Below, piece after piece: positions 2,217-57,164 of a stretch of 64,000 bases of DNA. Below the pieces are notes generated by a model. It was not told where the DNA came from. It saw only the letters and a list, made by a program, of their open reading frames with translations, and made no database searches. The stretch's first letter is position 1. Each line of letters starts with the position of its first letter. The DNA comes from Candidatus Eiseniibacteriota bacterium. GTDB taxonomy: Bacteria > Eisenbacteria > RBG-16-71-46. Position numbers and translations under genes: made by a program. Location: positions 23,982 through 87,981 of the forward strand of contig JBBRLX010000015.1 of the NCBI GenBank assembly GCA_038231135.1. The letters are read 5' to 3'.

Positions 2217-3665
2217 TCATCGGGCCGTCCCCGCCGCGGCCGGCTCCGGGGTGCGGCGCGCGCCGAGCACGAGATCGATGCACTCGCGCACGTGCACCGC
2301 GGAGACGATCTCGACCCCGGCGACGCGCACCTCGGACGCCTGCGGCGCGGGCACCACCGCGCGCACGAACCCGAGCTGCGCGGCCTCGCGCACGCGCAGC
2401 TCGAGGCGCGGCACCCGGCGTAACTGCCCCGACAGCGACACCTCGCCCACCAGCAGCGTGCGATCGAGCACCGGCCGCGCGAGGAACGACGACGCCACCG
2501 CGAGCGCCACGCCCAGGTCGGTGCCCGGCTCGTCGAGCTTGAGCCCGCCCGTGACGGTGACGAACACGTCGTGGCGGCCGAGCTTGAGCCGTACACGCCG
2601 CTCGAGCACCGCGAGCAGCACCGCGAGCCGCTTCTGATCGAGCCCGCTCGTCACCCGCTGGGGAACGCCGTAGAACGACGTCGACACCAGCGCCTGCACC
2701 TCGACCAGCAGCGGGCGCGTGCCTTCGAGACTCGCGACCACCGCCGAGCCCGGCTCGGGGCCGCGGGTCTCGGACAGGAACGCGGCGCTGGGGTTCGCGA
2801 CGCCGGCGAGCCCCGACTCCATCATCTCGAACACGCCGAGCTCGTGCGTCGAGCCGAACCGGTTCTTCGCGGCGCGCAGCGTGCGGTAGTGCTGGTAGCG
2901 CTCGCCCTCGAGGTAGAGCACGGCGTCGACCATGTGCTCGAGCACCCGCGGGCCGGCGACCGCGCCGTCCTTCGTGACGTGGCCGACGAGGAACACGCTG
3001 GGACCGCCGCTCTTCGCCAGGTGCATCAGCGCGAGCCCGCATTCGCGCACCTGCGTGACCGAGCCCGGACCGCCGTCGAGGTCGGCGCGCGACAGCGTCT
3101 GGATCGAGTCCACGATCAGCACGTCGGGCTTCACCGCGGCCGCGGCCTCGAGGATCGCCTCCACGTCGGTCTCGCACAGGATCAGGAGCGAAGGCGGAAT
3201 CGCCCCCACGCGCTCGGCGCGCATGCGGATCTGCTCCTCGCTCTCCTCGCCCGACACCACGAGCACCGATCGCCCGGCGGCGCCGATCGCCATCGCGAGC
3301 TGGAGCAGCAGCGTGCTCTTGCCGATGCCGGGATCCCCGCCCACCAGCACCAGCGAACCCGCGACGATGCCGCCGCCGAGCACGCGATCGAACTCGGCGA
3401 CCCCGGTGGGCTCGCGCGGCGTGTCGCGGACCGTGACGTCGGCGAGCGGCCGCGGAATTTTGGGACCGCCGCCCGCGGCGGCGGCGGCGCCGGGCGCCCA
3501 GCGGGCGCGCGTCCCCGTGCCGGCGGCGCCGGCGGGCGGCGCCTCGACCGCGGTGTTCCACTCGCCGCACGCCGTGCAGCGGCCGAACCAGCGCGACGCG
3601 TCGTTGCCGCACTGCGAGCAGTAGAAATGGGGCTTTGCGGCCTTGGCCGGCTTCGTGGATTTCAT
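2217..3665 (-). CDS. radA: DNA repair protein RadA/Sms
   Basis: N-terminal C4 zinc finger, GGDPGIGKSTLLLQ, KNRFG motif, Lon-like C-terminus. Confidence 0.97.
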   Translation of the reverse strand: MKSTKPAKAAKPHFYCSQCGNDASRWFGRCTACGEWNTAVEAPPAGAAGTGTRARWAPGAAAAAGGGPKIPRPLADVTVRDTPREPTGVAEFDRVLGGGIVAGSLVLVGGDPGIGKSTLLLQLAMAIGAAGRSVLVVSGEESEEQIRMRAERVGAIPPSLLILCETDVEAILEAAAAVKPDVLIVDSIQTLSRADLDGGPGSVTQVRECGLALMHLAKSGGPSVFLVGHVTKDGAVAGPRVLEHMVDAVLYLEGERYQHYRTLRAAKNRFGSTHELGVFEMMESGLAGVANPSAAFLSETRGPEPGSAVVASLEGTRPLLVEVQALVSTSFYGVPQRVTSGLDQKRLAVLLAVLERRVRLKLGRHDVFVTVTGGLKLDEPGTDLGVALAVASSFLARPVLDRTLLVGEVSLSGQLRRVPRLELRVREAAQLGFVRAVVPAPQASEVRVAGVEIVSAVHVRECIDLVLGARRTPEPAAAGTAR

Positions 3666-50831: not shown

Positions 50832-51656
50832 TCAGCGTGCCGCGAACGCCACGGCCCGCCTCGCTCTCGCCGCCCCGGTTCCGACGGGGTGGGACCGCAA
50901 CTCGCGGTTGCCGGGATCGACCTGGTAGGCCCAGTCCATGACGACCCGGCCCGAACCGATCGCGGATACCCGGAACTTGGCGTAGTGAACGTCGTGGGTC
51001 TCGACGACGTAGCAATGACCCACCACCAGTTCGACGGCGCCGCTCGGCGCCCAGCCCGTCGTGGGCGCGAAGTCGATGGCATCGAGCGTGGCGGCCTGGC
51101 CGGCATCCTGGATCTCGGTGTCGACGAACGGCGCCACCATGTGGTCGACCCCGCTGGCGCGGACGTAGTAGACGTCCACCGCCGCATTGTCGAACGCCAG
51201 CACGGAATGGCTCGCGAAGTTCCAGCCGCCGGTGGCGGGGGTCACCGCCGCGTCCGTCAGTGTCTGATCGAAGCCCTCGGGACGCGGCGTGTCGAACACC
51301 GTCTCGCTCGACAGCGCGCTCTCGTTGCCGTGCTGGTCCACCGCCGCCACGGCGAAGTACCGGGTCTGTCCGTTCGCGAGGCCTTCGACCGTAAAACTCG
51401 TACCGGTCGTGGAGGCGATCCGGTCGTACGGGCAGGACTGGCCACCGGCGCACGGCGCCTCGTAGATCCGGTAGGCGGCGAAGTCCGATTCCGTATTGGC
51501 GAGCCAGTGCAGATAGACCCGCGTGTCGCCGGTGACGGTGAAGAAACCCCGCGGAGCGGCGGGGGGTACGAGATCCTTCGGAGCCGAAGTGTCCCTGCAA
51601 CCCGCAATCGCCGTGGCCATCACGAGCACGCCGATGAATCTCCCGAACCCGTTCAT
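50832..51656 (-). CDS. Lipoprotein with fibronectin type III domain
   Basis: Lipobox IAGC; PPAAPRG..W..N.ESD...YRIY, GLANGQT.YFAVAAVD..GNESALS. Confidence 0.85.
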   Translation of the reverse strand: MNGFGRFIGVLVMATAIAGCRDTSAPKDLVPPAAPRGFFTVTGDTRVYLHWLANTESDFAAYRIYEAPCAGGQSCPYDRIASTTGTSFTVEGLANGQTRYFAVAAVDQHGNESALSSETVFDTPRPEGFDQTLTDAAVTPATGGWNFASHSVLAFDNAAVDVYYVRASGVDHMVAPFVDTEIQDAGQAATLDAIDFAPTTGWAPSGAVELVVGHCYVVETHDVHYAKFRVSAIGSGRVVMDWAYQVDPGNRELRSHPVGTGAARARRAVAFAAR

Positions 51657-51730: not shown

Positions 51731-51878
51731 CGGAATCCACGTTACCGCCATTCGGGGAAACCACGTAACGCGTTACGTCCCAACAGGGCGACACGAGGGC
51801 ACGGGTCTTTGGGACGGATCCTGCGTGCGGCGCGGTCTCAGGTGTGCATGGCGCGCAACACTGGGCACCTGGACGCAC

Positions 51879-51916
51879 AAACGAAAGCCCCGATCGGAAG
51901 CGAGTCCGATCGGGGC
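51879..51916 (-). terminator. Intrinsic terminator of the candidate ncRNA
   Basis: GCCCCGATCGGA-CTCGCT-TCCGATCGGGGC-TTTCGTTT. Confidence 0.85.
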
Positions 51917-52261
51917 GGTATTGCGAGGACACCAGCCTGAACAGCGGGCACCACCAGCCGAGACATCCCCCAATGCTGGCCAATGATGCTTTGGACCGGT
52001 GTCCTTTCTAAGACCGGAGCACTCTGCGCCACGTTCCGGCGGAATCGGGAGTCCATTGTTACCGTGCAGACCCACCGGCGGTCGTCCGGAGTGCTCCGGG
52101 GTGTTATCCAAGACGTTGGTGTTACTCCAAGCTAGCCGGCCGCCGAGGTCGGTACACTGTCCAGAAGACGGGGCTCGTAACCCTCGACCGATGCCCTGGC
52201 GAACCAGCTAGCTCAGAACCTGCATTTGTTTCTGCTTCTCTGGAGGTCCCCCCCCTCCGCC
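51879..52261 (-). ncRNA. Candidate sigma54-dependent structured ncRNA (~380 nt, three domains)
   Basis: Bounded by a sigma54 promoter and a terminator; three consecutive domains closed by 11-12+ bp stems; many G-U pairs that work only on the - strand; no ORF with genome-like codon usage. Confidence 0.7.
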
Positions 52262-52270
52262 AGACCTACA

Positions 52271-52288
52271 TAGCACCCCTCGTGCCGA
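52271..52288 (-). promoter_or_regulatory. Sigma54 promoter of the candidate ncRNA
   Basis: TCGGCACG-AGGG-GTGCTA, GG-N10-GC. Confidence 0.7.
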
Positions 52289-52398
52289 ATGCATGGCCAT
52301 TTCGTAACAATGTCATAGTCTCTTATCCCATAACGACATGCGGCATTGGTTGACGCCGGTTTCGGAGTCTCGCCGCGCCACCGGAATCGGTCCTTCCA

Positions 52399-52492
52399 GC
52401 AAGAGATCTTCGTGGTTTGGATACCCTCCGGCTAAGTGCAAGTCCCGAGGCCACTTGATCATTAAGTTTCTTGCTACCTCACCCGCAAGAAA
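52399..52492. promoter_or_regulatory. Candidate enhancer (UAS) palindromes
   Basis: AAGAGATCTT, CAAGT-N9-ACTTG and TTTCTTGC-N10-GCAAGAAA, ~110-200 bp upstream of the -24 box. Confidence 0.5.
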
Positions 52493-52536
52493 ATGATATG
52501 CGACCCGCGCCGGTCGTCCGATCCGCCGCAGTGAGC

Positions 52537-52564
52537 AAAAAAAATCCCGCGCACGTGCGCGGGA
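52537..52564 (-). terminator. Intrinsic terminator of the TPR-bEBP gene
   Basis: TCCCGCGCACGTGCGCGGGA followed by T8. Confidence 0.9.
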
Positions 52565-52580
52565 CGGGTGCGGCAGCGTC

Positions 52581-55679
<3,099 letters not shown>

Positions 55680-55753: not shown

Positions 55754-56044
55754 CTACCAGCCCGCTCCCAGCAATGGCAGTCGAGAAACCCTCAGATACA
55801 GCAGGTAGCCGTTCGGCAGTCGCACGATGATGCCGCCGCCACCGTCGTTCCGAATCAGGTTTCCACTTCTCCCGGCGTCACCGCTGTCCGGCTCTCCGCT
55901 GTTGGGACCGACGATGGGTCTCACCAGCCGCGCGGACGTGACGTCGCGCAAACCACGCGCTTCCGCCCGCCCGTGCACGGTGGCGATCATCGCCACAGCG
56001 AACAGGACGACTGTGATCAGGAGCCTGTTGCGAACTTTGAGCAT
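55754..56044 (-). CDS. Small secreted protein / candidate signalling-peptide precursor, 96 aa
   Basis: GAGGGGAG RBS; Sec signal ending RAEA; polar core PNSGEPDSGDAG; aromatic/hydrophobic tail. Confidence 0.7.
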   Translation of the reverse strand: MLKVRNRLLITVVLFAVAMIATVHGRAEARGLRDVTSARLVRPIVGPNSGEPDSGDAGRSGNLIRNDGGGGIIVRLPNGYLLYLRVSRLPLLGAGW

Positions 56045-56192
56045 TGCGATGCCGCTCCCCTCTTAACTACGGCGAACTGGAAAGAGATTTTCCTTCCGCT
56101 CCGGCGGAGGGCGCCGAAATGGACTGTGGACCTGGAGGGACCTCAAACTCTTTGATTCGCCACGGCCAGTATCCGCCTGCATTTGCGGACGG

Positions 56193-57164
56193 TCAACTGG
56201 AAGTTGGCGGGCTGCCGCGGTCGATTTCGGCGGCATCCTCGGCGGCGGCCAGCCGGGCCAGGCCGTACCGCAGACCCTGGGTGGAGCAGACCAGGTCTTC
56301 GGACGGAAACCGCTCGATCAACGACCGGACCACCAGCGCCCCGGCGATCACGATGTCGGCGCGGCCCTCACCCATCGAGGGCCAGCGGCGCCGCTCGTCC
56401 TCGGAACTCTTGGCCAGTCGATCGACGAGTTGCAGCAGCCGATCGGCCGGGATCCGCCAGCCCTCGAGCATGGTCGGCTCGTAAGAGGACAGGCGGCGAT
56501 CCGTCATGGCCATCACGGTGACCGTCCCGCCGACCCCCGCGAGCAGCGGTGTCGCGCTCGGCATAGATGCACAATGCTGCATGAGTTCGTCATGCACAAG
56601 CGTGCATAATTCAGCGATCTCCGCTTCCGTCGGGGGATTCGTGCGCAGAAACCGCTCGGTGAGGCTCACCGCTCCGAACTTGAGGCTGACCCACCGGCCG
56701 GGCTGTTCTCCCAGGCCACTCACGACCTCGGTGCTGCCGCCGCCGATGTCGAACACGACACATGGACTGCGGTGAGTCGAAGCGCCGAGCCCCTGGATCA
56801 CTGCCCGGTACACGGTACGCGCCTCTTCGTCGCCGGTCAGGATGCGCACCGGAATCTGGGCCTGTGCGGCGATCTGTTCCGCCACCTGCTCCCCGTTCCT
56901 GGCGTTGCGCAACGCCGCCGTCGCGGCTGCCAGAACACGGACCGCACCCAGGGTTCGGGCCCGGCGGGCGAACTCGGCGGTCAGGTTGGCAGCCCGATCC
57001 GCCATCGCCGGATCGATGAGTCCGGTACTGCCGAGGTTCCTCCCCAGACGGCAGGACTCTCCGGCCCGGGCGATCGTGGACAATGGATGACCGGGACCGG
57101 CAGCCACATCGGCCACCAGCAGGCGGATCGAATTCGACCCGATGTCGATTGCACCGACACGCAT
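56193..57164 (-). CDS. ppx: Ppx/GppA family phosphatase (short form)
   Basis: AIDIGSNSIRL, ATAALRNA.N, GDEEA, DIGGGSTE, GVGGT, GRADIV, GLRYG. Confidence 0.93.
   Translation of the reverse strand: MRVGAIDIGSNSIRLLVADVAAGPGHPLSTIARAGESCRLGRNLGSTGLIDPAMADRAANLTAEFARRARTLGAVRVLAAATAALRNARNGEQVAEQIAAQAQIPVRILTGDEEARTVYRAVIQGLGASTHRSPCVVFDIGGGSTEVVSGLGEQPGRWVSLKFGAVSLTERFLRTNPPTEAEIAELCTLVHDELMQHCASMPSATPLLAGVGGTVTVMAMTDRRLSSYEPTMLEGWRIPADRLLQLVDRLAKSSEDERRRWPSMGEGRADIVIAGALVVRSLIERFPSEDLVCSTQGLRYGLARLAAAEDAAEIDRGSPPTSS

Follow-up and report, generated by a model that had tools for sequence, protein, structure and literature searches.

A conserved, folded RNA family of the uncultured phylum Candidatus Eisenbacteria, encoded behind a sigma-54 activator gene and predicted to pair with the activator operon mRNA

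The window analysed here is a stretch of 64,000 nucleotides from a Candidatus Eiseniibacteriota genome. A non-coding RNA gene of ~380 nt was located on its minus strand (51879–52261) on the basis of fold, family models and promoter conservation; its 5′ end was inferred from the sigma-54 spacing and its 3′ end from a U tract. The order on the minus strand was a sigma-70-type promoter, a leader, a small ORF, an activator gene, a candidate enhancer, the sigma-54 promoter P1, the RNA, a terminator, a second sigma-54 promoter (P2) and a lipoprotein gene. The RNA was a single copy in the source genome, and among 52 close orthologue loci it lay behind the activator in 50; the other two were truncated. 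The sigma-54 activator (52581–55664, minus strand) showed a TPR-GAF-AAA+-HTH arrangement of Pfam domains, and its start was revised to the GTG at 55664, where an SD plus GTG was conserved. The first gene of the activator operon was the small ORF (55754–56044, minus strand), which had a signal-peptide-like start and a G(E/D)PD motif. This motif, the signal-peptide-like N-terminus and a hydrophobic C-terminus were found in at least seven families; the small ORF had no match in Pfam or NCBIfam, and a protein atlas gave unnamed clusters only, below 0.9. Together with the TPR activator, the small ORF is reminiscent of RRNPP peptide signalling, in which case its product might bind the activator. The putative promoter driving the operon (56168–56196, minus strand; TTGAC-N17-GATACT) was of the sigma-70 type and was found in 17 of 17 family loci.

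The minus strand of the 383-nt RNA region folded at −177.2 kcal/mol (z −4.16) and none of 100 shuffles was equally stable, while the plus strand gave a z of −2.48 in the same comparison. All 12 sampled RNA copies, the window copy included and each cut at the end of D3, had z values of −1.7 to −6.1. The predicted minus-strand fold comprised three domains (D1, D2, and D3), a 5′ hairpin and a terminator-like hairpin. The first-pass annotation had proposed a structured, multi-domain non-coding RNA on this strand, and its eight stem arms and both copies of its UAACACC linker repeat were recovered at their minus-strand places. That proposal was borne out by the fold stability, by compensatory changes in D1 and D3 and by the lack of a conserved reading frame among the orthologues.

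The 5′ hairpin (52242–52258, minus strand), with a 5-bp stem and a G-run loop, was the most conserved element and is likely the pairing seed; one of its stem pairs changed from G-C to A-U in family f12. D1 (52125–52217, minus strand) had a 15-bp basal helix, a variable helix and an apical three-way junction. D2 (52014–52099, minus strand) was a sequence-variable rod with, by eye, a D1-like junction. D3 (51926–52005, minus strand) was a long hairpin with a conserved basal helix and a G-run apical loop at 51975–51963, and both D1 and D3 contained sequence-invariant helices. The RNA would end in an intrinsic terminator-like hairpin (51916–51887) with a U tract (whole feature 51879–51916, minus strand).

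Sixty distinct orthologues were parsed out of 82 loci, and 56 of them were used for the domain and motif counts; 120 metagenome loci stood outside the family analyses. In the D1 alignment (A1, 60 sequences), 91.4% of cells were paired, and 70 two-sided changes were counted vs. 23.5 in shuffles. The D1 covariation score was 0.160 vs. 0.089, and 0 of 500 shuffles reached the D1 values; the number of covarying pairs (seven) was not above shuffles. In the D3 alignment (A2, 41 distinct rows, unfitted), 57 two-sided changes were counted vs. 25.6, again with 0 of 500 shuffles reaching the value, and alignment A3 gave a similar result but had been fitted to the model; relatedness among the sequences inflates the shuffle controls for both domains. 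The RNA strand was fixed because G-U, A-U and G-C pairs exchange at single D1 pairs. An uninterrupted D2 helix of at least 8 bp was found in 39 of the 56 orthologues. A junction motif common to D1 and D2, CCCGGWC, occurred in 28 of the 56 vs. 2.7 in shuffles and was not in the window's D2 copy.

Across the family the RNA was modular and ranged from ~265 to 490 nt. The interval between D1 and D3 varied from 38 to 258 nt among the 56 orthologues, and in other families one to about four rod-like domains followed the same hairpin by eye. Because the middle interval and the domain number vary, the equal domain sizes to which the first-pass annotation drew attention are incidental; its linker repeat occurred in 1 of the 56 orthologues and is not a feature of the family. 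Most of the aligned orthologues showed no terminator hairpin, and a U-rich tail lay immediately 3′ of D3 in 30 of 56. In one locus (L143, G028:C162:6272-6999), D1 and D3 were separated by an insertion of ~730 nt that contained an apparent ORF. In family f15 (L148–L153), an unpaired C4–C6 run was present in the RNA's own 3′ domain in five of six loci and could pair in cis with the RNA's own 5′ G loop. In families f10 and f18 (L165–L174), the hairpin and one rod were directly followed by a conserved ORF, so that in these families it might double as a 5′ leader.

Several other identities were considered and rejected. A protein-coding gene was rejected since the reading frame was not conserved among the 56 orthologues: the D1-to-D3 distance modulo 3 was distributed as 18/22/16 and the D1 length modulo 3 as 26/20/10. 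Neither the window nor any of 12 homologous loci had an Rfam 15 match at the gathering score, and at E-values up to 10 the element itself contained a single 19-nt chance match. A diverged housekeeping RNA (6S RNA, RNase P RNA, or tmRNA) was dismissed, as ordinary copies exist elsewhere in the genome, and tRNA and tmRNA scans of the element found nothing. Far from the element, ARAGORN called a tRNA-Ala(ggc) of 94 nt with odd geometry at 3484–3577 on the plus strand of the window; this call is probably false because a normal 76-nt tRNA-Ala(ggc) exists elsewhere. D1 presumably resembles a T-loop and GNCGA. Its reading as a Y RNA or tRNA mimic was not retained, as Ro60/TROVE was not found in the source genome nor in any of 24 family genomes and the loop varies outside the family. 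Some D2 copies bear what we take to be a likeness to the SAM-I kink-turn, which was neither conserved nor backed by Rfam. A pseudoknot between the D3 loop and D1, noticed by eye, was dropped because the D1 stem covaries locally in family f2. The locus is almost certainly a real RNA gene. Judged from sequence, it represents a conserved, folded and uncatalogued RNA family of the uncultured phylum Candidatus Eisenbacteria. No description of the RNA was found in the best-matching literature; supplements of RNA-motif surveys were outside that scope and could contain one.

Of the 36 family genomes, 34 had the element by BLAST, and the covariance models of D1 and D3 matched in all 36, once each, the extra D3-model matches being the opposite strand of the same hairpin. 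In the sister family, the D1 and D3 models matched in six and eight of ten genomes, respectively. The RNA was not found in viral contigs or in phage or plasmid collections. The P1 promoter (52273–52287, minus strand; CGGCAC-N6-TGC) was one mismatch off the sigma-54 −24/−12 consensus, and such a motif at a single locus is not significant, with 12 matches in the window vs. 10.2 expected. The support for P1, and with it for the sigma-54 promoter of the first-pass annotation, is therefore conservation at a fixed distance: a sigma-54 promoter and the 5′ hairpin occurred with unchanged spacing in 163 of 206 phylum genomes, while the reversed-pattern control gave 0. All positive genomes but one had a single match. 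The window's own genome misses this pattern through its first base, and in the pattern-negative families (f7, f8, f9, f12, f13, f14, and f17) variant promoters or hairpins were seen in the loci inspected. The phylum tallies include one unpublished genome (G038), on which no claim rests. By these models and patterns, most of this bacterial phylum, for which metagenomes are the sole source, has retained the RNA family.

An inverted repeat of the TATMAA-N5-TTKATA type (52460–52476) is a candidate enhancer and putative activator-binding site. In 48 of 60 orthologues, its best match lay 216–222 nt upstream of the hairpin; because the matrix was trained on the same sequences, the position of the match is what counts as evidence. 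The matrix had 14 matches in the genome, including one other promoter-linked site. A second enhancer-like site was found after another sigma-54 activator gene (G000:C1:225998-226450), where a sigma-54 promoter precedes a tiny lysine-rich ORF of 21 codons. An identical repeat-bearing sequence was present at two contig ends (G000:C29:58230 and C32:51242) and is likely a mobile-element terminus. Downstream of the RNA, P2 (51716–51730, minus strand) preceded a fibronectin-III lipoprotein gene (50832–51656) and had its own candidate enhancer (51861–51837), which differed from that of P1. The position of P2 before the lipoprotein gene argues for a stand-alone RNA rather than a leader in the window's family. 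Two RNA libraries, each from a different study, contained contigs that matched the RNA at 96–99% identity (51875–52054, 52031–52190, and 51915–52086), together covered 51875–52190 and also covered neighbouring genes in part, with a gap at 52265–52717 to which no weight is given. This match is a weak hint of transcription because contigs reveal neither strand nor ends nor level and might derive from DNA.

Two C-rich sites in the activator operon were complementary to the RNA. Site A (56134–56144, minus strand) lies in the leader and is complementary to the loop and 3′ arm of the 5′ hairpin. Its GGUCCC core was present in 16 of 17 leaders, and GGUCCC(C)UC was located 10–29 nt past the assumed operon start in 14 of the 15 leaders scored. 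A pattern of the promoter plus the site A core matched in 74 of 89 family genomes (control 1), where not every match was checked for position. Site B (55641–55653, minus strand), with the sequence GAUC-C6-GAUC at activator codons 5–7, is complementary to both G loops. It was found in 17 of 17 family loci, one run ending in U, and in 66 of 89 family genomes (control 0), and a C-loop hairpin was predicted for it in 13 of 17 folds. Its two Pro codons were CCC in 17 of 17 and 16 of 17 loci, although CCG is the commoner codon (307 vs. 189). A third-base identity of 94% was reached by only 7 of 167 conserved four-fold columns, and two of these were the site B Pro codons. By this measure, site B is conserved at synonymous positions. 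The first-pass annotation had included neither the 5′ hairpin, which is nearly invariant, nor the enhancer-like site upstream, nor the two complementary operon sites.

Complementarity was then scored as the longest perfect complement to each genome's own hairpin from −650 to +60 of the activator start, in 56 of 61 operon loci (five lacked an anchor, hairpin or flank). A complement of at least 8 nt was present in 37 of the 56 activator loci from 18 families. The control counts were 10 of 224 for coding windows, 8 of 56 for antisense strands and 6 of 56 for windows further upstream; 17 of the 18 families were above control (Wilcoxon p 5e-4), for a window and a statistic that were chosen post hoc, after data inspection, and with related genomes that are not independent. 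Among 1287 gene starts of the source genome, 5–6% reached 8 nt and at most 0.08% reached 11 nt, and an 11-nt complement occurred in 4 of the 56 loci. Variant hairpins partly matched their own sites: the complement was 11 nt with the own hairpin vs. 7 with the standard one in f12, 11 vs. 5 in f7 (L392) and 11 vs. 9 in f17 (L390). In f8 the values were 7 and 7, and L380 reached only 7, so the covariation of hairpin and site was not clean. Moreover, the f8/f17 variant fitted L354 and L398 (12 nt) and L374 (11 nt) better than their native hairpins did, and the f7 variant fitted L384 (12 nt) better than that locus's own hairpin. Complementarity was near background in f11, f14, and f4, and family f13 keeps the RNA without a complementary site (5 nt vs. 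6.6 in the control).

On this evidence the RNA probably pairs with the mRNA of its own operon, and if it does, the regulation is very probably negative. We somewhat favour the fuller reading that the G-rich loops pair with the two C-rich sites of the activator operon and damp the activator by negative feedback. The activator would bind the inverted repeat at 52460–52476 and open P1. The 5′ or D3 loop would then kiss the C6 loop at codons 5–7, and kissing at site B might hinder initiation or trigger decay. Site B begins at codon 5 and runs to codon 7 and would thus fall only partly inside the five-codon window described in the available text of a published study (PMC9486967). The 5′ hairpin might also open to engage site A, which lies close to the 5′ end of that mRNA. 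The net pairing energy after opening costs was roughly predicted at about −7 to −10 kcal/mol, and such G-C-rich loop pairing would not depend on Hfq, which was detected in none of 101 phylum genomes. D1 and D2 may be scaffold or protein-binding modules; D1 and the base of D3, which make up most of the conserved RNA, are not accounted for by the pairing model. Sequence comparison establishes the RNA gene with its promoter, its fold and its fixed place behind the activator, as well as the existence and conservation of the two complementary sites.

The same pairing sites might instead let the RNA activate or stabilize the operon, by freeing the ribosome site of the small ORF or by shielding the 5′ end. 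Site A can pair with the small ORF SD in several minimum-energy folds, and the 5′ end of the RNA is itself SD-like. However, when site A was forced open, the SD became cheaper to open in only 5 of 15 leaders (mean cost from 12.1 to 11.8 kcal/mol, p 0.72), and release of an anti-SD at site A was rejected; because access to the small ORF ribosome site was left unchanged by blocking site A, the effect of this site is unexplained. Site B would lie under the initiating ribosome, where repression fits better than activation, and the activating role is distinctly unlikely. It is unlikely too, to a slightly lesser degree, that the RNA is mainly a scaffold or decoy for a protein (perhaps the activator or a nuclease adaptor) or self-assembles via its junctions, with the mRNA sites secondary or bound otherwise. 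Such a role would suit the invariant helices of D1 and D3, which are beyond the reach of mRNA pairing, the repeated junction motif (28 of 56 vs. 2.7), which mRNA pairing does not explain, and family f13, which retains a D1-like domain without any site. Against it, the number and sequence of the domains vary widely among families while the 5′ hairpin is constant, and another cause would be required for the variant-matched complementarity.

Cleavage of a precursor into three separate small RNAs, an alternative suggested by the first-pass annotation, appears very unlikely. Each domain has a long closing helix, the linkers are predicted to be single-stranded, and the Pxr RNA of Myxococcus has a processed form according to the accessible part of its report (PMC5568312). 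RNA-library contigs nevertheless spanned both linkers, which speaks against cutting into three and leaves room for partial processing; the linker repeat is confined to 1 of 56 orthologues, and some families have a single domain. A CsrA sponge acting through GGA in both loops of the RNA seems slightly less probable still. CsrA was present in 179 of 206 phylum genomes, FliW was not found in the source genome, and f13, which has no CsrA (0 of 5), has lost GGA from both loops. But A(N)GGA motifs averaged 2.3 per RNA vs. 3.5 in shuffles, and all eight f10 genomes retain the invariant hairpin while none of the eight has CsrA. At one locus (L038, G000:C1:164849-165007), a CsrA highly conserved in the phylum was followed by a 71-aa ORF that we take to resemble FlgM. 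The loops of the RNA also lack the ANGGAX hexaloop described in the portion of the literature available (PMC4005645), and few Eisenbacteria CsrAs were predicted to be active on the test target of another study, as far as its accessible text reports (PMC13443453).

The preferred reading, feedback by loop pairing, was compared with known systems. Sigma-54-dependent RNAs linked to an activator locus include CrcZ with CbrB in Pseudomonas and GlmY with QseF/GlrR in enterobacteria, and both are protein decoys, for Hfq and RapZ, respectively. The Eisenbacteria RNA is likewise sigma-54-linked at an activator locus, but the Hfq decoy role of CrcZ is not matched in a phylum where Hfq was not found in 101 genomes. 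In Vibrio, the qrr genes are sigma-54-dependent, and qrr1 adjoins luxO. Qrr RNAs repress LuxO by base pairing with its mRNA, so that the RNA feeds back on its activator, as stated in the text available from PMC3262071. The Eisenbacteria locus resembles Qrr1-5/LuxO in its sigma-54 promoter and linked enhancer-binding protein, and the feedback here is predicted only. In contrast to Qrr, the Eisenbacteria RNA has no Rfam match and so neither the sequence nor the fold of Qrr; it is ~265–490 nt long and modular, carries G-run loop seeds and comes from genomes without detected Hfq, and its activator has TPR-GAF in place of the receiver domain of LuxO. In the part of the Pxr report at hand (PMC5568312), the Pxr gene lies directly downstream of the sigma-54 activator gene nla19 and has its own sigma-54 promoter and several stem-loops. 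All of this also holds for the Eisenbacteria RNA, whereas Pxr is 108 nt long and there is no sequence or model match between the two. The 6C RNA of Actinobacteria pairs by homopolymer G-C loops without a chaperone in a high-GC organism, as given in the available sections of PMC6486639. Chaperone-independent homopolymer-loop pairing is predicted here as well, but with opposite polarity (G loops on the RNA and C sites on the mRNA) and with a different fold and promoter. On these comparisons, the Eisenbacteria RNA is placed like Pxr and, somewhat more likely than not, works like Qrr-LuxO, but is a member of neither.

In a wider and doubtful picture, nearly phylum-wide, a G(E/D)PD peptide would be secreted and sensed by the TPR activator, which would drive a large modular RNA. 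This RNA would complete the loop through chaperone-free kissing of G and C loops at two sites ~500 nt from each other in the operon mRNA, and its repeated three-way-junction modules would recruit a protein or RNA partner. It is unusual for an orphan RNA to have a specific predicted target backed by synonymous-site conservation and partly matching variants, and this specific target makes the RNA directly testable with synthetic RNAs and reporters. If the feedback reading is true, the Eisenbacteria RNA would represent an independent origin of the Qrr-LuxO feedback logic, free of Hfq and with the seeds reversed, G on the RNA and C on the mRNA.
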